Origin: an uncultured Chloroflexota bacterium
Lineage (GTDB): Bacteria; Chloroflexota; Dehalococcoidia; Lucifugimonadales; CAJXCD01
Assembly (NCBI GenBank): GCA_913051545.1
Contig: CAJXCD010000002.1
Location: 152,220-216,219, forward strand
Length of the DNA stretch: 64,000 nucleotides
Direction: 5' to 3'
Shown: piece by piece, positions 711 to 11,789 of the stretch
Numbering within the stretch: the first letter of the stretch is position 1
How the letters are laid out: the number at the start of each line of letters is the position of its first letter
Notes under the pieces: generated by a model
The model's database searches: none
What the model was told of the DNA's origin: nothing
What the model saw: the letters and a program-made list of their open reading frames with translations, nothing else
Translations under genes and position numbers: made by a program

Positions 711-1547
711 CTATATGTAATTTCTAGGTTTGAATGGAAATTTTAGTCTTCGAATAAATCCGGGAGATTGTGACTTGGATGTTTCTTTTAACGGTTCCGG
801 TTTAGGAACAAAAGGTATTTTCATTAAAGCATAGAGTTTGTAAGCCTGTAAAAGAATCCTAATTTCGGTTAGCAATACAGTCCTGCTTATCTTCCAAAAG
901 GACAGAAAAAGATTCCAGTTGTTTAGAGGTATTTCATTAGCGATATAAGTTGTAGATATAACGCATTGTTCTTCTTGATAAAGATTAATTTGTATTTCCA
1001 TTCCAGAGTCAGAATACGAAAATTTGAAAGTGTAATTGTCCTTTCTTTCAATGAATGGTGAAACGTGGAACCGTTTTTTATGAGTGAACTCAGTAAGACC
1101 AGAGTCGAAGTCATTGCCTGAATGAAGAAAATAGATATGTGATTCGCCATACGTATTACTTACTTCCACAGCAGCAGCTAGAACTCTTCCTGTATCACTA
1201 ACTCGGAAAAAGAATGAAGCAGGATTAAAAGAGTATCCAAGTAGAGAGGGCGTTGTTATTAGTAACATAGAGTCAGAGTCAGAGAAACTGTGTGATGATC
1301 CGAAAAGGTCAGCAATTTTTTTTATGATGCTTCTTTTTGAAGCGTCGATATATAACCAGTCTTTTATAGAAAATAGTCCGAACTTGTTGTGAGATATTAA
1401 GTAAGGTAGGTGATCTGATTTTGATAAGTCATCTAGGTCTAAAAGTAGCATGCAGTGATTGTAAGTAAAGCTATGTACTTTTGGTACAAAACGTGTGTGA
1501 TTTAATTTGCCTGTGAGTATTGATGATTTCAAACGATTGCCTGTCAA
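711..1547 (-). CDS. DUF1365 family protein (lipid-modification cluster member)
   Basis: The N-terminus LTGKLNHTRFVPKVHSFTYNHCMLLLDLDDL matches the DUF1365 pattern (G.v.H.R..P..H.F.Y....LDLDEL). It overlaps the upstream FAD oxidoreductase gene by 4 nt, which suggests translational coupling. Confidence 0.8.
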   Translation of the reverse strand: MTGNRLKSSILTGKLNHTRFVPKVHSFTYNHCMLLLDLDDLSKSDHLPYLISHNKFGLFSIKDWLYIDASKRSIIKKIADLFGSSHSFSDSDSMLLITTPSLLGYSFNPASFFFRVSDTGRVLAAAVEVSNTYGESHIYFLHSGNDFDSGLTEFTHKKRFHVSPFIERKDNYTFKFSYSDSGMEIQINLYQEEQCVISTTYIANEIPLNNWNLFLSFWKISRTVLLTEIRILLQAYKLYALMKIPFVPKPEPLKETSKSQSPGFIRRLKFPFKPRNYI

Positions 1548-2791
1548 AACTTTCCTATGGTGTCGGCGACCATTTTCCCGGAAACGAATGCGTCTTCATG
1601 AAAGCCATATCCAAAATAGGAGCCACAAAAGCGAATCGTATTGTATTGATTCAGAACTTTAAAATTGTTGTAGTTAAGTGTTTGATCGTGATTAAGTATT
1701 GGGTGATTATATTTAGTTTTGTATAGTGTATTTTCTTCGGATGGATTTGGATATGGATTAATCGTCACAAAAAATTCGGAACTTGTTTGGAGTTGTTGTA
1801 GGCGGTTCATGTAGTATGTTGTGAATGAGTGAGGGCCAGAATGAGTATCTACATTTATCACATTCCATGACGCCCACACTCTCTTGTTATTGGGCATTAA
1901 AGACTTATCGATATGTAGGAAGGCGTCGTTTTCAGAATACTCATATGTGGATAATATATCTGATAACCTTTCAGGAAAATGTCTAGTAATCTTTAGGGCC
2001 TCATCAGCGTGAGTAGCAATAATTGCTACGTCGAACTCTTGTTCTTCTAGCGCTGCAGATTCTATAACGGCTTTTTCATTTATCGATTTAACGGAAGTTA
2101 CATCAACATTAGTGTAAATTCGACCTCGGAAAATTGATGAAAATTGGTTTATGTAATTCCTGCTAGCTCCTCGTATAGTGAGCCACTGCGGTCGATTCTT
2201 GATATTCAACAACCCGTGATTAGAGAAAAACTGCATGAATGTTGAGGCTGGTATATGTGCAGCATATTTTCCGTCACATGACCAAATAGCAGATGCTATT
2301 GGTACGAAGTAGTTATTTATGATATCTAAGGGGCAACCTATTTTGGTTAGTAAGTCGACGATATTTATCCCGACACTTAGGTGTTCACCTGAATGTTTTT
2401 CCAATAGCTTGGAGTATTTGTATATATTAAATAGGCGGTGAATATGGCTTGCAGATGTTATAGATTTCAGGCTTGGGAAGAGCCCACCTATTGTTCCAGC
2501 ATACTGTATTGCTTTCGACATGTTGGTGTAGGAAAAAGACATGTCTGACCGGTGATTTTCCACGTTGAGTTCCTGTAAAAAATGAAAGAAATTAGGATAA
2601 TTTCTTTCGTTGTAAACAATAAAGCCGGTATCTATGGATACTGTATTACCTGCAGGGTCTTGGGTTGTGATGGTATTTGAGTGTCCGCCAATGACGCTTC
2701 TTTTTTCTATCAGTGTGACTTCGTGTTTATTGTGTAAGTGGTAAGCGGCAGATATTCCAGATATTCCGGCTCCTACAACGGCTATACGCAT
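1544..2791 (-). CDS. NAD/FAD-binding oxidoreductase, COG2907 / amine-oxidase-like
   Basis: N-terminal Rossmann motif MRIAVVGAGISGISAAYHL...EVTLIEKRSVIGGH, followed by DTGFIVYNERNYPNFFHFL, typical of COG2907 proteins. It sits next to DUF1365 and CFA-synthase genes, the conserved arrangement. Confidence 0.8.
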   Translation of the reverse strand: MRIAVVGAGISGISAAYHLHNKHEVTLIEKRSVIGGHSNTITTQDPAGNTVSIDTGFIVYNERNYPNFFHFLQELNVENHRSDMSFSYTNMSKAIQYAGTIGGLFPSLKSITSASHIHRLFNIYKYSKLLEKHSGEHLSVGINIVDLLTKIGCPLDIINNYFVPIASAIWSCDGKYAAHIPASTFMQFFSNHGLLNIKNRPQWLTIRGASRNYINQFSSIFRGRIYTNVDVTSVKSINEKAVIESAALEEQEFDVAIIATHADEALKITRHFPERLSDILSTYEYSENDAFLHIDKSLMPNNKRVWASWNVINVDTHSGPHSFTTYYMNRLQQLQTSSEFFVTINPYPNPSEENTLYKTKYNHPILNHDQTLNYNNFKVLNQYNTIRFCGSYFGYGFHEDAFVSGKMVADTIGKF

Positions 2792-2796
2792 TTTGG

Positions 2797-3891
2797 TCAG
2801 ATGTCCTGGTTTTTGAATAGGTAATTCATTAGATGCCAGTCATTACCTTCGTTATATTTGAATAGTTCTGAACAAGCTAGTAGAAACAGTTTATATCTAT
2901 TTATTAACACCATTGGATGGGTAGGGTGATTGGATTTTTGTATCTTACGGACTAGATTTGATTTATTTGATTCTAGAGTGTTAAGCCAAGCCTCTAGTGT
3001 TAGATGATAGTTGATACCAGACTCAGTCCACGATTTTATCATTGATAGAGGTGAAGGGATATCTTTGTAAAATCCGTCATATGGCATCATTCCGCCAGTG
3101 AAAAAATGACGCGATAACCAGGAGTGTTCAATGTCATCAAACATGTGAGGATGCGTCTTATGTGAGAATACCTGTATAAATAATTTCCCATTTGGATTTA
3201 GCCAATTTGAAACATTTCCCATTAGCTGTTTCGTATTTCTAGTGTGTTCAAACATTTCTATCGATATAATCCTGTCAAACTTCTTAGTTATATCAAGTTT
3301 GTTAATGTCACACTTTATGACTCTCAAATTCTCTATGTTCCTCTTATTGCTGACCGACTCAATGTATTCCTTTTGCGTGGAAGAATTGGTTACAGATGTT
3401 ACCTGAGAGTCGTGATATTTCTCTGCTAGATATAGAGACATAGAGCCCCACCCTGCACCTATATCCAGAATCTTTTGGTCATTATGTATATCAGCTCGCG
3501 ATTCATAAGTGGCTAATGTTTTGTCGTCCGCATCATCAAGATCTTGGCAGTTATCATTCCAATAAGATCCACTGTATTTCATGCGAGTGCCTAATATTGT
3601 TTTGAAAAATTCTGTGGGTACTTCATAGTGTTGAAGATTAGCCTCGTCAGTATTTATTGCTAAATGTCCGGTGGTACATTTGTTTCTGAAAATCGATCTG
3701 ATACTTTCGATTTGATCAGCGTTAAGCCTAGAGATTTTACGGGCATACTTTGTGATGCTTAGCTTGACTAAAAGACGCATTAAGGCATTAGGTAACAACC
3801 AGTTGTCTATTACAGGTTCATACCACATTTGCTGATTTCCTAAGTAACAGTTGAAGATCATCGATGTATTTTGCTGCGAATCCCCCTTCAC
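2797..3891 (-). CDS. SAM-dependent methyltransferase, cyclopropane-fatty-acyl-phospholipid/mycolic acid synthase (CMAS) family, paralogue 2
   Basis: SAM motif ILDIGAGWGSMSLYLAEKY, FDRIISIEMFEH, and the C-terminal YKLFLLACSELF pattern of CMAS enzymes. The annotated start overlaps the upstream gene by 74 nt. Alternative in-frame ATGs at 3861 and 3828 reduce that overlap. Confidence 0.8.
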   Translation of the reverse strand: MKGDSQQNTSMIFNCYLGNQQMWYEPVIDNWLLPNALMRLLVKLSITKYARKISRLNADQIESIRSIFRNKCTTGHLAINTDEANLQHYEVPTEFFKTILGTRMKYSGSYWNDNCQDLDDADDKTLATYESRADIHNDQKILDIGAGWGSMSLYLAEKYHDSQVTSVTNSSTQKEYIESVSNKRNIENLRVIKCDINKLDITKKFDRIISIEMFEHTRNTKQLMGNVSNWLNPNGKLFIQVFSHKTHPHMFDDIEHSWLSRHFFTGGMMPYDGFYKDIPSPLSMIKSWTESGINYHLTLEAWLNTLESNKSNLVRKIQKSNHPTHPMVLINRYKLFLLACSELFKYNEGNDWHLMNYLFKNQDI

Positions 3892-5026
3892 AATAACTGA
3901 AGTAGTAATAAAAACGTCTTATGTCTTTAGTAGAAAAGCCTAGGCGTAATATATCGTTTGATGAGTCTGTAAGATTGTTCCTCCATATTCGTAGGGTCTG
4001 TTCATAGTGTTTTCCTATAGATAAATTGTCTTGTATAACAAAATTATTTGCGTAGCATGCGGACTCAGTGATTGATGACATTGACGGCAACATCCCTCCA
4101 GGGAAAATGTATTTTTGGATATAATCGCAATTTTTTCTGTACGATTCATATCGTTCGTCTGGGATAGTGATGACCTGGATTGATAATGTCCCATCTTCAT
4201 TCAACAGAGAATCGCATTTTCGAAAGAATTCTTTAAGTCCGGTATGACCTACTGCCTCTAACATTTCCACGGAGTAGATTTGGTCAAAATTACCCTTTAG
4301 TGTTCTATAATCTTGGAAAAGAATCCTGATCCTATCGCTGAGGCCAAGTCTGTCTACGAGTTCAGTGCAGTATTCGAACTGGCTTTTTGATAAGGTGACC
4401 CCGGTACCCTCACAGTTGTATTCCTGCACTGCCTTGGTTAGCAGCCCTCCCCACCCGCATCCTATATCTAAAATGTGAGACTTGTCATGGATGTTGCTTT
4501 TAGAAAGAAGTAGCCTTATTTTTTCATCTTGCGCTTCAGACAGGTTAGTTTTATCAGTTTTAAATACAGCGCATGAATAAGTCATCGATGGGTCTAAGAT
4601 CTTTTGAAAAAATTCGTTACTGAGATCATAATGGTCTCTTATATTTCGTTTTGACCAGTATATGGAATTTTTTGATTTAATCTGCTGGACAAATTTTGAA
4701 TACAGTTTTACCGGCAGAAGATTACCGATTGAAATATTGGTGCCGTTCAACCTGTTTTGAGAGAGTTGTTTGAATAAATTAGGTAGGTCATTGCAATTCC
4801 ATTTTTCATTTAAATAGGCCTTTGCAAAACCAAGATCGTAACCTGTTGCTAAATCTACGAAAAAAGACCAATCTAGAACTTCCATATTTGGGGTAAGCGC
4901 GTCTTGTTTTCCCGAGAGGTGTATTTGACGTTTATCTGGAAGTGTTATTGAGGCGTTAAGACCTTTAAAATGCTTTATGACGCTTTTATAAATTAGTTTT
5001 CCGAGCGCTTTGGAGAAGAATTTCAA
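3818..5026 (-). CDS. cfa: cyclopropane-fatty-acyl-phospholipid synthase-like SAM methyltransferase, paralogue 1
   Basis: It aligns by eye with E. coli Cfa: HYDLSNEFFQKILDPSMTYSCAVF, ILDIGCGWGGL, FDQIYSVEMLEAVGH, YIFPGGMLPS, FYYYFSYCEGGF. Confidence 0.85.
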   Translation of the reverse strand: MKFFSKALGKLIYKSVIKHFKGLNASITLPDKRQIHLSGKQDALTPNMEVLDWSFFVDLATGYDLGFAKAYLNEKWNCNDLPNLFKQLSQNRLNGTNISIGNLLPVKLYSKFVQQIKSKNSIYWSKRNIRDHYDLSNEFFQKILDPSMTYSCAVFKTDKTNLSEAQDEKIRLLLSKSNIHDKSHILDIGCGWGGLLTKAVQEYNCEGTGVTLSKSQFEYCTELVDRLGLSDRIRILFQDYRTLKGNFDQIYSVEMLEAVGHTGLKEFFRKCDSLLNEDGTLSIQVITIPDERYESYRKNCDYIQKYIFPGGMLPSMSSITESACYANNFVIQDNLSIGKHYEQTLRIWRNNLTDSSNDILRLGFSTKDIRRFYYYFSYCEGGFAAKYIDDLQLLLRKSANVV

Positions 5027-6192: not shown

Positions 6193-6732
6193 CTACAAAT
6201 TAAACTTTGGGAATTTAGAGACCCAGATTATTCCATCCAGAACAAGACAATGAAGTGTAATGTAGGTTAGTCCTGTTAGGACGAGGTATTTATGGAATAG
6301 CGAAGTGTCCTTCGCTATATATATATAGAAAACCACTACAGTCAGTGAAACTAATGACAGGGCCGTTATCCATAGAGAGCTAACAGTAACAAACCACCAT
6401 AAAGGTTGCTGGGTTTTTATATAGGCGATAGTTGCAGGCATCCAAAAAGTAGCAGAGATCAGGAAAAAAGCGCATATAATACCCAATGTATAAGTACCTA
6501 AGAAGTCAGAGAATACGTCAGCATATTTAGATATTACAGAAAAGCAGAAAGCGATATATCCGATCGCAGCAGGTAACATTGATACTGTAAAGATCGTTTT
6601 CCACGATCCTTCCACTCCTCCCCATAATGCCGCCCTGGACTCAGGATATAGTGCTATGCAGATTGCATAACTAGAAAGTACTGAAATCCCCCCTAATATA
6701 TTTACAAGAACAAAAACCTGCGTACCGGACAT
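6193..6732 (-). CDS. polytopic integral membrane protein, unknown function
   Basis: 179 aa, almost entirely hydrophobic, with about 6 predicted TM spans. An AGGAGA RBS lies upstream of the ATG. It is the first gene of the minus-strand lipid operon. Confidence 0.6.
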   Translation of the reverse strand: MSGTQVFVLVNILGGISVLSSYAICIALYPESRAALWGGVEGSWKTIFTVSMLPAAIGYIAFCFSVISKYADVFSDFLGTYTLGIICAFFLISATFWMPATIAYIKTQQPLWWFVTVSSLWITALSLVSLTVVVFYIYIAKDTSLFHKYLVLTGLTYITLHCLVLDGIIWVSKFPKFNL

Positions 6733-6842: not shown

Positions 6843-6923
6843 CAACATGATGGTTTATAGTGTTGACACTGGGGCACATATTAAAGGACGTAAATAAGTT
6901 TTCTGGTGGTCAGGTTTTTGAAC

Positions 6924-8381
6924 ATGAAAATATTTATTACAGGAGCTACAGGGTTCATAGGTCGGGCACTAGTGGCCCATTTTCTTTCTAAAGGATATTT
7001 GATTACCGCTTGGACCCGGGATGTATCCAGAGCCAGGGACATGTTGGGGGAAGGAGTCCATCTAGTTCCAATAGATGTATCTGATGAAATTCTTCGTCAG
7101 GAGATCGAATCTTCAGACGCCGTGGTTAATCTAGCTGGTAGAGCGATAGTTGGGGTGAGGTGGAACAAAAATGTTAAAGAGGAAATTTATTCCAGCAGGG
7201 TAGGTCTGACGAAAAGGCTAGTCCGTGAGATGAAACTCTGCTCCAGGCAACCGAAGGTTTTGATATCTGCTAGTGCAGTAGGTTACTACGGTGACCGTGA
7301 TTGGGATGAACTGGTAGAACGGTCTTCCGGTGGCACAGGATTTTTGTCTGATTTATGCAGAGACTGGGAACAAGCAGCACTAGATGCAGAAGGTTCAGGC
7401 ACTAGGGTATGTACGATGCGATTTGGAATTGTGTTGGGGAGAGAGGAAGGTATATTAAAACAAGTAACTCCTTCATTTCAGTTAGGTTTGGGTACGTATA
7501 CCGGCACAGGAAAGCAATGTGTACCTTGGATACATATAGACGACATTGTACTAATTATAGGTTTGTGCTTAAGGAATGGTAGGATTTCGGGACCAGTTAA
7601 TTGTACCTCTCCAAATCCAGTTAGTTCATTAGTTTTTTCCAGAACCCTTGGTGCTTTGACTCCCGCTAAGATGTACATCGGTATCCCATCCGTATTACTT
7701 GGTTTACTTTTCGGAGAAGGTGGAAATGTTCTCACAAATAGTCAGAATGCTTTACCAGCTAAACTAATAGACCATGGATACGAGTTTGAATTTCCTAGCC
7801 TATACGATGCGCTTTGGGAGGAGTTTAATTATGAGCACGTTTCTATCAAAGAGGTAGAATCTGAAACTGCTGCAGCCAATCGTGATTCAGCTTTAGTTCC
7901 AAAAGGGCAGTATGAACTTCGAACAAATGTGGAATTAAATGCTCTCCCAAAAGAGACTTTTTCTTTCTTCTCCTCACCTCTTAATTTAGGTATCACAACA
8001 CCATCGTGGATGAGATTTCGAATAATAAATATGCCTGTACAGATTGATAAAGACTCTCGTATTTTATACAAAATCAGCCTTGGATTTGGAATTCTTAGTC
8101 TACGATGGACTACTCGAATATTAGACTGGAACCCAGACGAATCATTTACAGACGTTCAAGAAAAAGGTCCTTATAACCTGTGGTTCCATCAGCATCGTGT
8201 AATTGGGACAGATAAAGGGACTTCAATAATGGAAGATCGCGTAATTTACAGTGTTCCATTGGGTATATTAGGAAAATTAACACACATGGTATTTATCAAA
8301 GGGATTTTAATTCGTATATTCAACTACAGAAGAAAAGTCATCCGTCAGATATTTTGTTCTGAGGAAATCAGAAGGCAATAA
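6924..8381 (+). CDS. TIGR01777/YfcH-type NAD-dependent epimerase-like domain fused to a C-terminal SRPBCC (cyclase/dehydrase-like) ligand-binding domain
   Basis: MKIFITGATGFIGRALV Rossmann start, so I prefer ATG 6924 over the track GTG 6906. The C-terminal ~160 aa (W..RILDWNPDESFTDVQEKGPYNLWFHQHRV...MEDRVIYSVPLGILG) has the SRPBCC pattern often fused to YfcH homologues. Confidence 0.75.
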   Translation: MKIFITGATGFIGRALVAHFLSKGYLITAWTRDVSRARDMLGEGVHLVPIDVSDEILRQEIESSDAVVNLAGRAIVGVRWNKNVKEEIYSSRVGLTKRLVREMKLCSRQPKVLISASAVGYYGDRDWDELVERSSGGTGFLSDLCRDWEQAALDAEGSGTRVCTMRFGIVLGREEGILKQVTPSFQLGLGTYTGTGKQCVPWIHIDDIVLIIGLCLRNGRISGPVNCTSPNPVSSLVFSRTLGALTPAKMYIGIPSVLLGLLFGEGGNVLTNSQNALPAKLIDHGYEFEFPSLYDALWEEFNYEHVSIKEVESETAAANRDSALVPKGQYELRTNVELNALPKETFSFFSSPLNLGITTPSWMRFRIINMPVQIDKDSRILYKISLGFGILSLRWTTRILDWNPDESFTDVQEKGPYNLWFHQHRVIGTDKGTSIMEDRVIYSVPLGILGKLTHMVFIKGILIRIFNYRRKVIRQIFCSEEIRRQ

Positions 8382-8382
8382 C

Positions 8383-9270
8383 TTGGTTACTATAGAAAAT
8401 AGTCTCATTAATAAACTGACTAGACGTTTGACGGAGGGGCTCAGGTCAGGTGATCAAAGGCAGTGTCTATATGTGATCGATGAGGCCCTAGACAGTAGAT
8501 TTAGCCCTGGAATTATATACACGAATATCATCTCCCCCGCTAATGTGGAGATAGGAAATCTGTGGCACAAAGGACACATATCTATTGCACACGAACACGT
8601 ATCAACCCAGATTTCCATGAAATTACTTGACCATGTCTTGGATAAGTCCACTAATTCTTTACCAAATGGTCTAAGTGCGATAGTTACTTCTGTTCAGGGA
8701 GACGGACATTGCTTGGGGGCTAAGATGATGTCAAATTTACTGTCCTTAGACGGATGGAAGGTATTTTACTTGGGTGAAAATACTCCTGCAGATGATATTG
8801 CGAGGCTGGTAATTGAAAGTGGATCCAAGGTTGTAGCTCTTTCAGTAACACTGGATAGAAACATCAAAAATGCCATATTTTCTATAGAGGTTCTTAAAAA
8901 TTTAATCGATCCACCTTTAGTTGTATTGGGTGGAGCTGCTATATCTGAAAACTTACTTGAATTCAACGAAGCTTTGGTTGTGACAGATCCGGTTAGTGCA
9001 GTATATAAGTTAAGAAAAGAATTTTGCATAGGTGCTGAGCACCTAACATTGAATGGGCTGTTGGCTCAGATAGGCATCAAGGTATTTGAAAAGCGTAAAG
9101 CAATTGGTAGGAGTCAGGGGCAACTCGCGGAATTAGCCGGTGTAGATAAAGCTTATATTAGTCTAGTTGAAAACGGGAAACAGAATTTAACTATGGGACG
9201 ATTGCTTAGGATAGCACAGGCTCTGGATATTAGTGTATCTGATCTCTTAGAAACATCCAGTAATCTGTAG
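8383..9270 (+). CDS. cobalamin-binding (CarH-like B12 module) transcriptional regulator with C-terminal XRE-family HTH
   Basis: B12-binding cap with W61-x9-E71-H72 (NLWHKGHISIAHEH). Rossmann B12 domain with D107-x-H109-x-x-G112 (GDGHCLG) and LGENTPADDI. C-terminal HTH_3-like segment KRKAIGRSQGQLAELAGVDKAYISLVENGKQNLTMGRLLRIAQALDISVSDLL. The TTG start lies 1 nt after the upstream stop. Confidence 0.8.
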   Translation: MVTIENSLINKLTRRLTEGLRSGDQRQCLYVIDEALDSRFSPGIIYTNIISPANVEIGNLWHKGHISIAHEHVSTQISMKLLDHVLDKSTNSLPNGLSAIVTSVQGDGHCLGAKMMSNLLSLDGWKVFYLGENTPADDIARLVIESGSKVVALSVTLDRNIKNAIFSIEVLKNLIDPPLVVLGGAAISENLLEFNEALVVTDPVSAVYKLRKEFCIGAEHLTLNGLLAQIGIKVFEKRKAIGRSQGQLAELAGVDKAYISLVENGKQNLTMGRLLRIAQALDISVSDLLETSSNL

Positions 9271-9324
9271 CTCACAGAACTTCAAGAGAGTTGAAATATT
9301 AGTATAAGGGAAGAAACTCTGCGG

Positions 9325-9801
9325 TTAAGTATCTATAGAAAGTATGGTTTGTAGTGATGGGACTCTACCACTTCTTTTCCAGACCAAATTCCCATTAGTA
9401 TCGAATACGATAAATATAGGTGTAACGTTCGCGTTATATTTTTTGCGTACGTACTTTCCTATTTCAGAGCCGATATCAAATCTAACGACTACATACTCAT
9501 CGCCTAGTTGATTCTCTAGCCTGTCCACGGCAGGCTTGGCCGAGAGGCATGCCACTCAGTAATTTGAGTACAACTCAAGTAAAACGGGTTTTCCAGACGT
9601 TAAAACATTATCTAACTCGACTATGCTGGAAATACTACTGGAAGTGGTAGATCCAATTATTTGGAATGAGGTTATAGATATGAATGTAATTGAAACTGCA
9701 ATTATCGTCCATTTAAGTTCGAATGTCCTCCAGGTTGCAAATGTTACGATTAGCAGGATTAGCAATCCTGTCACTATCGATGAGTATTGATTGATGAACA
9801 T
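9325..9801 (-). CDS. membrane-anchored thioredoxin-fold protein with in-frame TGA at the redox motif (candidate selenoprotein, UxxC)
   Basis: Track ORFs 9556..9837 and 9325..9555 abut in the same frame and are separated only by TGA (9556-9558). Joined, they read GKPVLLELYSNY-U-VAC-LSAKPAVDRLENQLGDEYVVVRFDI...TPIFIVFDTNGNLVW, a thioredoxin beta1-CxxC-alpha1 layout. The N-terminus is hydrophobic. ATG 9801-9799 overlaps the upstream stop (TAATG), and an alternative ATG lies at 9837. Confidence 0.65.
9514..9546 (-). other. candidate bacterial SECIS hairpin downstream of the UGA
   Basis: The minus-strand RNA from +13 to +45 after the UGA is CUCU-CGGCCA-AGCCUG-CCGUGGA-CAGGCU-AGAG. It has a 6-bp upper stem (AGCCUG/CAGGCU), a 7-nt apical loop containing GU, and a 4-bp lower stem (CUCU/AGAG) with an asymmetric internal loop. 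I folded it by hand only. Confidence 0.45.
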
Positions 9802-10544
9802 TATTTGCCCCAAGTGGAGAAAAATTCTGGCCCCCATCGCCGAGCCAGTAGAATCGTTTTCCTGGAGTAAGAACCATATGGTGGAGCAGTTTGACTATCT
9901 ATCCATGATTCAGCAGCATCCAGGGTTGGTAATTCGGTTATGGAAACTTTGTGCCAGTCTGTTTGCGGACTCATCAAATGAAACTCTTCGAAACTCATGA
10001 GTCTATGGGTCTTTGCACTGCGGCTACAACGGTCTAAGTATTCACTATCTCCTCGATCCTCAGGACTAGTGAAGGAATGTTCAGGGAGTAACCTTGAAAA
10101 CATCAAAACAAGTACGCTATTTTTATCCTCACGTATATGAGGCAGATTGTTTGGATCAATGGTATTTTCTGTTTTAATAATTTTCCGTGGGTGTGTGACT
10201 AATTGAGAGTGATTGTGTTGGATTGAACGATATGCCAGATGGTATTCATAGTTTCCGTATGAACCGTAGGGTGGCGCCATTTCAGCTTTAATCCATTCTG
10301 TTGCACCGTCTAAGGTGGGGAATTCTATCACCCAGAATTTTTCCCATGATTTTTGAGGACCGAGCAACTTGTACCCTTGGATACCAATCAAGTCATACTT
10401 TTGAACAACTTCTAGCATAAGTTCGACATGAATTCTTTCATATTCCTTTTGGTCGGAACGTGAGACACGATGCCAAGTTGGTAGTCTCCCGCCTTTGAAT
10501 AATACGACCACACTGTTATTAATATTTTGTGTTTTGTCACTCAT
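9801..10544 (-). CDS. hypothetical protein with two tandem DUF1330-like (dimeric alpha/beta barrel-like) domains
   Basis: There is an internal duplication: FWVIEFPTLDGATEWIKAEMAPPYGSYGNYEY and VSITELPTLDAAESWIDSQTAPPYGSYSRKTI. The pattern resembles the DUF1330 C-terminus (vIEFPS.e.A..Wy.SpeY). Confidence 0.5.
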   Translation of the reverse strand: MSDKTQNINNSVVVLFKGGRLPTWHRVSRSDQKEYERIHVELMLEVVQKYDLIGIQGYKLLGPQKSWEKFWVIEFPTLDGATEWIKAEMAPPYGSYGNYEYHLAYRSIQHNHSQLVTHPRKIIKTENTIDPNNLPHIREDKNSVLVLMFSRLLPEHSFTSPEDRGDSEYLDRCSRSAKTHRLMSFEEFHLMSPQTDWHKVSITELPTLDAAESWIDSQTAPPYGSYSRKTILLARRWGPEFFSTWGK

Positions 10545-10565: not shown

Positions 10566-11789
10566 TTATATTTCAAATGGTGTTCTGGGAAATTGCATCA
10601 AGAATTCGGGGATGCCTTCTGTGACACGTATATGGTCACCTAGCGGCACAAACATTTTCCCCGATTCTGGGAGAGAAAACGCTGAGTGCAATACCAGAGT
10701 CATTCCTGGTTTCAAAATAGTATCGTTAGATTCAGATGGGATTGGAATTTCACTGTAGTCTAGACCTATTCCATGTCCTACTCGTCCTCCTTGTAGTTTC
10801 CATCCAAACTCTGAGGATTTTTCGCGTACCGCTTTTGCTATGTCACCGGCTCTTGCGCCAGGTCGTATTGCTTCTAGACCCGCATTCTGGGAGTCTCTGG
10901 CTATACCTGTAATATGTTCTAGGTAGTCCGATGTCTTTCCCATCGAACCAGTGCGATGGCCATGACTCCAGTAGCCTTTATATACAATGTAAGAACATAC
11001 AGAAATCATGTCTCCCTGATTTAGGACTCTTTCATGTGGTTTTATGTCTAGCCTAGTATCTTCCCAAGTTGTTGGGGGTCCTGAAGCCATCCAGTACTTA
11101 GCATGGTCAGCACCTTTTTCCCTAACGACTCTTTCCATTTCAGCAATTATTTCTATTCCAGTCATACCTGGTCTGGCAGTGGACAATAATGTTTCGAAAC
11201 CCAGATCGCCAAGATGTGCAGAATGTCGCATTAAGGCCATTTCATCTGGCTCTTTAGTGGATCTCATATCACCTATGATATCCCTGACACGTTTTAACCG
11301 CCCTCCGAATTCACATACTAGAGATTCATAGAATAGCACTGACATATTTTCAATCCCAACGACACCTACATCTCTATCATTAAGACCATTCAGATTTAGA
11401 ATTTCTTGGGTCGCGCCGCCAAATGTTCGTAGGCTGGATTTTAGATTGGGATCTTTGGTTTTTTCTACTGCGACGGCATTTGGATCAATTGATTGGACGA
11501 GAAGAATGTTTTCAATACACGAAGCATCTGGTATTTGATCTAACATGTAAGGAAGGCCGGCAACAAGTAAAGTCGGTGAACCTTCGGAGGGAACCACGAC
11601 GGCGGAATCAACTATTCGGTCATGATTAGCCCATCCTGACAAGTAGGATACGTGCCCTGTCTGACCCCATTTGTGTTCAGCAGCTGGGGAATATGCAAAC
11701 AGTGCACCGAGTCCTTCTTTCTTTAGGAATGATCGAACCTGAGAGTACCGATTCTCCAGTGTGTGAGATAGAGTCTTATCCGGCGGCAT
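10566..11789 (-). CDS. M24 family metallopeptidase (Xaa-Pro dipeptidase/creatinase-like)
   Basis: The C-terminal pita-bread domain carries metal-ligand context motifs: VCSYIVYKGYWSHGHRTG, GHGIGLDYSE, VLHSAF. The N-terminal domain is creatinase-like. Confidence 0.75.
   Translation of the reverse strand: MPPDKTLSHTLENRYSQVRSFLKKEGLGALFAYSPAAEHKWGQTGHVSYLSGWANHDRIVDSAVVVPSEGSPTLLVAGLPYMLDQIPDASCIENILLVQSIDPNAVAVEKTKDPNLKSSLRTFGGATQEILNLNGLNDRDVGVVGIENMSVLFYESLVCEFGGRLKRVRDIIGDMRSTKEPDEMALMRHSAHLGDLGFETLLSTARPGMTGIEIIAEMERVVREKGADHAKYWMASGPPTTWEDTRLDIKPHERVLNQGDMISVCSYIVYKGYWSHGHRTGSMGKTSDYLEHITGIARDSQNAGLEAIRPGARAGDIAKAVREKSSEFGWKLQGGRVGHGIGLDYSEIPIPSESNDTILKPGMTLVLHSAFSLPESGKMFVPLGDHIRVTEGIPEFLMQFPRTPFEI

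Follow-up and report, generated by a model that had tools for sequence, protein, structure and literature searches.

A probable membrane-anchored, thioredoxin-like selenoprotein gene, split at an in-frame TGA, in an uncultured Chloroflexota bacterium

Reading frame and protein architecture

The DNA analysed here is a 64,000-nucleotide stretch of contig CAJXCD010000002.1 from an uncultured Chloroflexota bacterium, referred to below, at its full length, as the window. On its minus strand two open reading frames (ORFs), 9556..9837 (93 aa, TGA-terminated) and 9325..9555 (76 aa, GTG start), lie in the same frame. Translation of 9300-9900 on this strand contains a single stop between them, TGA at 9556-9558, and the joined reading is ...SGKPVLLELYSNY-[TGA]-VACLSAKPAVDRLENQLGDEYVVVRF.... 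This arrangement had been described in a sequence-only reading of the locus, and both the ORF list and the translation confirm it. The same reading took the locus to be a selenocysteine (Sec)-decoding gene divided by standard ORF calling, a proposal now supported by conservation of the TGA, by selection and by a downstream hairpin. From these comparisons we consider it very probable that 9325-9801 (minus strand) is one gene, encoding a 158-residue membrane-anchored thioredoxin-like selenoprotein with Sec at residue 82.

The true start is ATG 9799-9801, as homologues begin at the same M-[FL]-I-N-Q-Y-S and the Tara call of the N-terminal half starts there. It overlaps the TAA of the upstream ORF 9801-10544 (TAATG). 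The features of the locus are as follows.

9325..9801, minus strand: complete candidate selenoprotein gene, 158 codons plus a TAA stop (9325-9327), with ATG at 9799-9801
9727..9798, minus strand: predicted transmembrane helix 1 (TM1), residues 2-25 (AlphaFold; hydropathy and the positive-inside rule agree)
9649..9717, minus strand: predicted transmembrane helix 2 (TM2), residues 29-51 (AlphaFold)
9328..9624, minus strand: thioredoxin-fold domain, residues 60-158 (Pfam PF00085, AlphaFold and Foldseek)
9556..9558, minus strand: TGA, codon 82, very probably read as Sec, at the nucleophile position of a U-V-A-C redox motif (conservation and alignment to Cys forms)
9547..9549, minus strand: TGC, Cys85, resolving cysteine of UxxC (nearly invariant in the 70-member family alignment)
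9518..9536, minus strand: candidate bacterial selenocysteine insertion sequence (bSECIS) hairpin, AGCCUG-C-C-[GUG]-G-A-CAGGCU (minimum free energy (MFE) fold and covariation)
9418..9420, minus strand: CCT, Pro128, in the T-P motif before strand beta3 (P128 invariant in 70 of 70 members)

With U read as C, residues 65-145 matched the Pfam Thioredoxin family PF00085 at 26.8 bits (gathering threshold 23.5), as did 67 of the 70 family members. Alignment to thioredoxins in the PDB places the first Cys of WCGPC on the TGA codon. Together with the near-invariance of C85, this bears out the claim that the TGA replaces the nucleophilic Cys of a thioredoxin layout in which the resolving Cys is kept. AlphaFold, run on a shallow alignment, produced a model (mean predicted local distance difference test score, pLDDT, 76) with helices 2-25 and 29-51, a Ser/Thr-rich linker and then the order alpha-beta-[79-82]-alpha-beta-alpha-beta-beta-alpha, with residue 82 at the N-terminus of helix 83-99. 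Its best PDB matches in Foldseek were classical thioredoxins (TM-score to target 0.72-0.80, root-mean-square deviation ~2.2 Å). S79 and P128 do not vary among the 70 full-length members, and C85, P72 and G137 hardly do; Pro128 would be the equivalent of the thioredoxin cis-Pro, presumably in the cis conformation.

The charge distribution around the two helices is uneven across the 70 members. The 6-residue loop between TM1 and TM2 (R25-K30 in the window) carries an average of 2.16 Lys plus Arg residues, against 0.34 for the N-terminal tail, and the segment after TM2 is acidic. By the positive-inside rule, the K/R-rich loop and K/R-poor tail suggest a topology of N-terminus out, loop in (cytoplasmic) and C-terminus out, so that the thioredoxin domain probably lies outside the cytoplasmic membrane.

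Conservation of the UGA codon and the downstream hairpin

Homologous loci were compared at the DNA level, and TGA was present at the aligned codon in seven of the seven examined (L001-L007), across identities from 90 % to 30 %. Three of these, at 90, 52 and 44 % identity, were all that a word-indexed protein search returned. The other four came from a scan of one genome per species: a SAR202 metagenome-assembled genome (MAG, 53 %), a Dehalococcoidia MAG (45 %), an Anaerolineae MAG (30 %) and a Roseobacter-binned contig (32 %). In all four the TGA is followed by x-x-C-L-S-A-K-P-A-V. The nearest genome hits of the window gene are SAR202/Dehalococcoidia MAGs, from which the host is probably a marine, SAR202/Dehalococcoidia-like member of the Chloroflexota. 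The Roseobacter-binned locus (L007, JAYTNY010000656.1, in a MAG labelled Roseobacter sp.) carries both the TGA and the hairpin on a contig binned with an alphaproteobacterium, in contrast to the remaining genome hits, which belong to the Chloroflexota; it was either binned wrongly or transferred horizontally.

When 1.84 billion representatives were searched exhaustively with a profile, 1462 relatives were returned. At the Sec column, the best 150 of these had Cys in 98 aligned rows, 'W' in 20 (TGA on the DNA in the three followed up, see below) and Ser in four; this is the column at which the sequence-only reading had proposed to look for Cys or TGA. Dozens more representatives are halves, either of ~83 aa ending just before the column or of ~76 aa starting just after it. 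The Cys homologues are single 160-residue proteins, for example P0005, LYSNFCVACLSSKP (E = 1e-53), and named Cys forms occur in Dehalococcoidia MAGs. As aligned, UGA codon 82 is the Sec member of a Sec/Cys pair with relatives that carry CxxC.

Metagenome DNA was also scanned with a degenerate pattern that treats TGA, TGC and TGT alike, and at least 120 stretches matched. Among the matches listed, 123 scored as family members in the fetched DNA, with TGA in 114, TGC in five and TGT in four, a ratio (114:9) that overstates the prevalence of Sec since the pattern demanded K/R-P-x-[VIL]-D, which overlaps the hairpin; TGG was left out of the pattern, so that genuine Trp forms were unsampled. The frame and the junction at the TGA are invariant across these members. 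The exact C-terminal half of the window gene occurs in 61 blocks of public assemblies, and in six independent assemblies of this population the gene varies by 0-3 nt, the TGA being kept in all six. Conservation of this degree is well outside what chance would give. The gene's population is cosmopolitan. Two tandem TGA-containing thioredoxin-like paralogues, ~600 nt apart, were observed in each of two loci, L077 (488-559 and 1089-1160) and L095 (9882-9953 and 10486-10557).

The coding sequence on both sides of the TGA is under purifying selection. Relative to the 90 % homologue, the ratio of nonsynonymous to synonymous substitution rates (dN/dS) was 0.13 for codons 1-81 and 0.11 for codons 83-158. 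The latter value shows that the part 3′ of the TGA is translated. Close and distant relatives alike carry the same single TGA, with no extra stops or frameshifts.

A hairpin follows the UGA within the coding sequence. Across the family its stem is formed by nucleotides 23-30 and 34-41 (numbered from the U of UGA), which enclose a G-U-N triloop, and it starts 20 nt after the TGA. In the window the apical loop is G-U-G at 9526-9528, 27 nt after the UGA, and the element lies within the codons for K89-P-A-V-D-R-L95 at the start of the helix that follows the active site. The MFE version in the window has a 6-bp stem, a 7-nt loop (CCGUGGA) and a spacing of 25 nt; the family consensus has eight pairs and a spacing of 27 nt.

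Covariation was assessed over 105 distinct Sec forms against 500 shuffles. Stem cells were paired in 91.2 % of cases, compared with 83.4 % in shuffles (reached by 0/500) and 21-44 % in slid registers. Double changes numbered 100 cells where 38.6 were expected (0/500). Pair 27-37 was C-G in 56 forms, U-A in 37, G-C in six and U-G in four; pair 28-36 was G-C in 58, A-U in 39 and G-U in four; and pair 24-40 was G-C in 61, A-U in 18 and G-U in seven. Positions 24, 27 and 36 are synonymous third bases of Lys, Pro and Asp codons. An earlier test on eight sequences had been statistically weak (72/500), and the result became decisive with 105. Nine Cys forms that encode the same K-P-x-V-D were paired at 43 % of cells, indistinguishable from shuffles.

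Folding energies over nt 21-43 gave a consistent picture. The window hairpin, at −8.6 kcal/mol, was equalled by 77 of 5000 synonymous recodings (null mean −2.3), and Sec forms averaged −9.5 kcal/mol against −2.7 for their synonymous null. Cys forms averaged −1.8 kcal/mol, and none attained −7.5. Folding of the 23-nt segment was weaker than −7.5 kcal/mol in 27 of the 106 family copies. In 105 of 106 Sec forms, G31 precedes a U or a G.

The published bSECIS model describes a loop of 3-9 nt, a stem of 4-16 bp, a G in the first two loop positions, a spacing from the UGA of 16-37 nt and an MFE of −7.5 kcal/mol or lower (PMC13188914), and the window hairpin falls within all of these limits. The sequence-only reading had suggested a bSECIS search, and a hairpin of this type, covarying and specific to Sec forms, is indeed present. 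Compared with the bSECIS consensus (bSECISearch model, PMC13188914 Fig. 2A), it shares the stem-loop in the coding region right after the UGA, the 27-nt spacing, the G-U loop and an upper stem of 6-8 bp. It differs in that the thioredoxin-like hairpin is family-specific in sequence and without an Rfam model, and in that the window copy has a C.A mismatch. Its fit to the consensus suggests that the hairpin has the features of a bacterial SECIS element, for which it is a candidate.

Codon 94, which pairs with the Pro-90 codon, is almost always NGG or CAG in Sec forms (Gly 61, Arg 40, Gln 5), whereas it is unconstrained in Cys forms. This indicates that the RNA element shapes residue 94. In the tandem copies of L077 and L095, CCG (Pro) pairs with CAG (Gln-94), giving a third Watson-Crick type (G-C) at pair 27-37.

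Selenocysteine decoding and its alternatives

These results fit the following scheme. The ribosome would read UGA-82 as Sec, and the hairpin would recruit SelB carrying Sec-tRNA(Sec). The hairpin, written in the K-P-x-V-D-[R/G]-L codons, is kept by covariation of the synonymous third positions of Pro, Asp and Lys with their partners. Sec would serve as the nucleophile where the active-site helix begins, with Cys85 acting to resolve. The product may then be a tethered thiol/selenol-disulfide oxidoreductase outside the cytoplasmic membrane, in which replacing Cys by Sec could make the nucleophile more reactive and less prone to irreversible over-oxidation.

Several points weigh against this interpretation, in addition to the choice of scan pattern described above. 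Neither the 64-kb window nor 633 kb of related fragments yielded selA, selB, selD or tRNA-Sec, although the negative results for tRNA-Sec (ARAGORN) and for SelD/SelB motifs are uninformative, coming from fragments only and not whole genomes. In the window hairpin a C29.A35 mismatch beside the loop leaves only six contiguous pairs in the MFE fold; the mismatch is common to 22 of the 106 family copies. Taken whole, the 67-nt region does not exceed shuffled sequences in stability (z = 0.64). A search of the window against Rfam gave no SECIS or tRNA-Sec hit at the gathering threshold, and no Rfam family fitted the hairpin; in permissive mode at the locus the sole match, a CRISPR repeat (E = 4.9), was attributed to chance. 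Neighbour clustering across ~120 loci found no conserved partner gene, the best families occurring in at most eight, and gene context therefore yields no functional inference. Finally, we infer both the outward topology and the redox role from the sequence.

Sec decoding in the lineage has indirect support, at the level of the lineage only, from two sources. BSepDB records Dehalococcoidia MAGs with 49 and 46 selenoproteins (PMC13326102). A Dehalococcoidia MAG contig (L005) also carries a second TGA-interrupted gene, so that the family gene there lies between a 1-Cys peroxiredoxin (9233-9931) and this second gene, the three forming a small redox cluster. The second gene (L005:10527-10988, plus strand; TGA 10662-10664) is a candidate selenoprotein of the AhpC/TSA family (BCP-like) with the TGA at the peroxidatic-Cys position. 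It reads ...VLLYFYTSSGGGN-[TGA]-TRMALGY..., with FYTSSGGGN before the TGA, and a 7-bp hairpin, CTCTCGG-GTA-CCGAGAG, lies 13 nt 3′ of the TGA. When all loci were scanned naively for more redox genes split by TGA and provided with a hairpin, only out-of-frame junk from GC-rich contigs came up.

The alternative that survives best, itself improbable, is read-through without selenium, by which the hairpin would promote near-cognate decoding of the UGA (as Trp, Cys or Arg), or else a Sec gene would persist in a genome whose Sec machinery has been lost. The lack of Sec genes in the window and related fragments would be expected under it. Downstream RNA structures are generally able to stimulate read-through. 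However, the hairpin fits the SelB-type consensus, with a small G-U apical loop and 27-nt spacing in 105 of 106 members, and the codon stands at the catalytic Cys, where Trp or Arg would abolish function. In addition, the gene belongs to a cosmopolitan population and is under purifying selection, and the related lineage is rich in selenoproteins, the L005 contig having a second such gene. These observations favour insertion of Sec at UGA-82.

A still less likely account is that of two genes, one for an 81-residue membrane peptide and one for a 76-residue protein initiated at the GTG right after the TGA. Every public annotation on long contigs calls the locus in this way, and the GTG does directly follow the stop. 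No Shine-Dalgarno-like sequence was seen before it on inspection of the sequence, however, and a thioredoxin fold made of the C-terminal half alone would be missing strand beta1 and its nucleophile, in keeping with the earlier view that neither half makes a sensible protein. The single-chain Cys homologues and the invariant frame and junction likewise argue for one continuous gene.

In public annotation the Sec forms are unnamed halves, and the Cys forms are named 'thioredoxin family protein [Dehalococcoidia bacterium]'. The window gene and at least 100 relatives in public assemblies are systematically mis-called, either as fragments of 81-83 and 66-76 aa or as proteins with a false Trp. A 55-aa antisense ORF is also called publicly over the membrane-anchor half (window 9623-9790, plus strand; L128:9766-9933), and is almost certainly spurious.

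The false Trp was traced as follows. All three homologues from the word search show Trp at the Sec column, and the DNA of all three (L001-L003) reads TGA. The three records are gene calls made under translation table 4 on contigs shorter than 1.3 kb, none of which translates under table 11, and two of them (L002 and L003) also read through further TGAs upstream of the true start, creating false N-terminal extensions. The 164-aa 'W' forms occur only on short ENA contigs (under ~1.6 kb), and share 90 %-identity clusters with truncated 83-aa calls made on contigs of 141-323 kb. Since the DNA shows TGA, and since short and long contigs share clusters, we regard 'W' as an artefact of code-4 gene calling. 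Such records (P0001-P0004, P0006-P0009 etc.) can mimic a Trp-containing family or a pseudogene.

A pseudogene, in which a TGG-to-TGA or TGC-to-TGA nonsense mutation killed a gene of the thioredoxin family, would need one base change and would at face value agree with the Trp in database homologues. That Trp is TGA on the DNA, and the TGA is kept from 90 % to 30 % identity and in the 114 metagenome members among the matches listed. With dN/dS of 0.11 downstream, no further stops or frameshifts in relatives, and a hairpin maintained by covariation, the conserved TGA and the purifying selection 3′ of it refute this explanation, whose probability we regard as negligible; the additional disruptions that the sequence-only reading had named as a sign of decay were absent.

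Equally negligible is an alternative code with TGA as Trp (code 4) or Gly (code 25), which is implied by ENA and Logan gene calls and by public proteins with W, three of them untranslatable under table 11, but which is contradicted by the upstream TGAs traversed in L002 and L003, by the confinement of W forms to short contigs and their clustering with truncated calls from long ones, by Cys rather than Trp or Gly at the aligned residue in relatives, and by ten long window genes that terminate at TGA, read-through of which adds just 3-32 meaningless codons, so that TGA is an ordinary stop in this genome.

Relation to known families and gene neighbourhood

Selenoproteins with a thioredoxin fold and a UxxC motif are already known and abundant in marine surveys, and the window gene is an unannotated member of this class. 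The claim that such proteins are common in marine metagenomes agrees with the Sargasso Sea and Global Ocean Sampling (GOS) surveys (PMC1088965, PMC2398784). With thioredoxin-type UxxC selenoproteins (PF00085; Treponema denticola Trx; Sargasso/GOS 'Thioredoxin' and 'Trx-like 1'; PMC1088965, PMC2398784, PMC13188914) it shares the fold, Sec in place of the nucleophilic Cys, the retained resolving Cys, a bSECIS right after the UGA, the existence of Cys homologues and occurrence in marine metagenomes. In contrast, the window family has YSN[YF]-U-x-x-C-L and not W-U-G-P-C, two N-terminal transmembrane helices, and Sec forms that appear predominant in the subfamily of the window gene. The protein scored 27.4 bits against the canonical TrxA equivalog TIGR01068 (cut-off 96.8), with Y-U-V-A-C in place of WCGPC. 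By these measures it is thioredoxin-like and not TrxA.

Membrane-tethered thioredoxins of the TlpA/ResA/CcmG(DsbE)/StoA type and DsbD gamma resemble the window protein in having a tethered thioredoxin fold predicted to face outward, and faint profile similarity links them. Some relatives of these families are known selenoproteins (UGC-containing TlpA-like proteins, TsoB). The window anchor differs from that of TlpA/ResA/DsbE in being a two-helix hairpin and not a single helix, the nearest structures are classical thioredoxins, and no linkage to ccdA/dsbD or cytochrome c maturation genes was found in ~120 loci. Scores against TlpA/ResA/DsbE-type models were 15-23 bits, compared with cut-offs of 123-359. 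The faint similarities of the family as a whole are to DsbD-gamma, TsoB, TlpA and slr1796/TxlA. None of the curated NCBIfam selenoprotein cut-offs (SaoT, TsoB, GOS_C NF045500, HUIPC NF047660 and VPGUxxT NF041383) was reached; TsoB matched faintly (18.8 bits against 805), and the SaoT, GOS_C, HUIPC and VPGUxxT models gave no match.

Among the selenoprotein bins described from the Sargasso Sea and GOS data are 'Thioredoxin', 'Thiol-disulfide isomerase-like', 'Trx-like 1' and 'Trx-like 3' (PMC1088965, PMC2398784). As given there, 'Trx-like 1' has 321 Sec against 7,880 Cys forms, and 'Trx-like 3' is a marine-enriched UxxC group with weak cd02950/TxlA similarity and 212 Sec against 183 Cys forms (PMC2398784). 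Compared by description only, 'Trx-like 3' and the present family share UxxC, a surface-ocean setting, a high Sec:Cys ratio and weak TxlA/slr1796 similarity, and nine of the 70 family members faintly match the TxlA/slr1796-group model NF038096. On that descriptive comparison, the family may fall in a GOS bin, most plausibly 'Trx-like 3'.

It is possible, but we consider it doubtful, that the gene represents an uncatalogued family: a thioredoxin tethered to the membrane and facing outward, belonging to marine Chloroflexota (SAR202/Dehalococcoidia and relatives), with Sec forms far outnumbering Cys forms and a SECIS in the active-site helix that constrains residue 94 to NGG or CAG codons. If the outward topology is true, aerobic marine bacteria would carry a selenol-based redox enzyme at their surface, with a bearing on ocean selenium demand and on the preference for Sec over Cys in oxidising surroundings. 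The family offers a clean case of the same codons specifying both an RNA element and a protein helix. A protein hidden Markov model combined with a covariance model of the hairpin would mend the gene calls and add a Sec-rich family to counts of the ocean Chloroflexota selenoproteome. What is known of Sec decoding itself is unchanged by the window gene.

The neighbours of the gene in the window, namely an unknown 247-aa ORF, an M24 peptidase, a B12-binding/helix-turn-helix (HTH) regulator and an epimerase, are unrelated to selenium or redox functions. The 247-aa ORF (9801-10544, minus strand), whose stop overlaps the start of the selenoprotein gene, has no Pfam or NCBIfam match and contains two internal repeats, each closing with a W-I-x-x-x-x-A-P-P-Y-G-S-Y motif. 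It is kept in the same population and does not lie beside the thioredoxin-like gene in other lineages.

Over the ~120 loci, the commonest neighbours were major facilitator superfamily transporters (eight), a CsoR/RcnR-like repressor (eight) and an OsmC-like protein (four). The repressor (...RLxRIEGQxRGVxRMLEEDRDCxDILTQ...) lies on the same strand near the family gene in L046 and seven other loci, downstream in six, and ~250-300 nt downstream in L046 and others. It is too infrequent for a link to be drawn, but may point to copper or thiol stress in one subgroup.

A 179-aa multi-pass membrane protein without a family match is encoded at 6193-6732 (minus strand). In the 90 % relative (L001), 22 nt separate the selenoprotein gene from a downstream homologue of this protein (509-1030, 78 %). 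The window has two opposite-strand genes (6906-9270) between the pair, and in more distant loci the two are not adjacent. The 179-aa protein could be an ancestral operon partner, to judge from this arrangement.

In the regulator at 8383-9270 (plus strand) the domains are unusually ordered: B12-binding_2 and B12-binding are N-terminal, and an XRE-type HTH is C-terminal. In an assembly of the same population (L129, 10286-10977) it is called as two ORFs (144 and 73 aa), suggestive of a frameshift or of disruption at the strain level. Further away, 711-5026 (minus strand) encodes a DUF1365 protein, an amine-oxidase-like flavoprotein and two cyclopropane-fatty-acyl-phospholipid-synthase-like methyltransferases, the second of which is called at L128:15728-16759 (window ~2797-3828). 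This cluster is recognisable as a lipid-modification gene set, unrelated to the selenoprotein.

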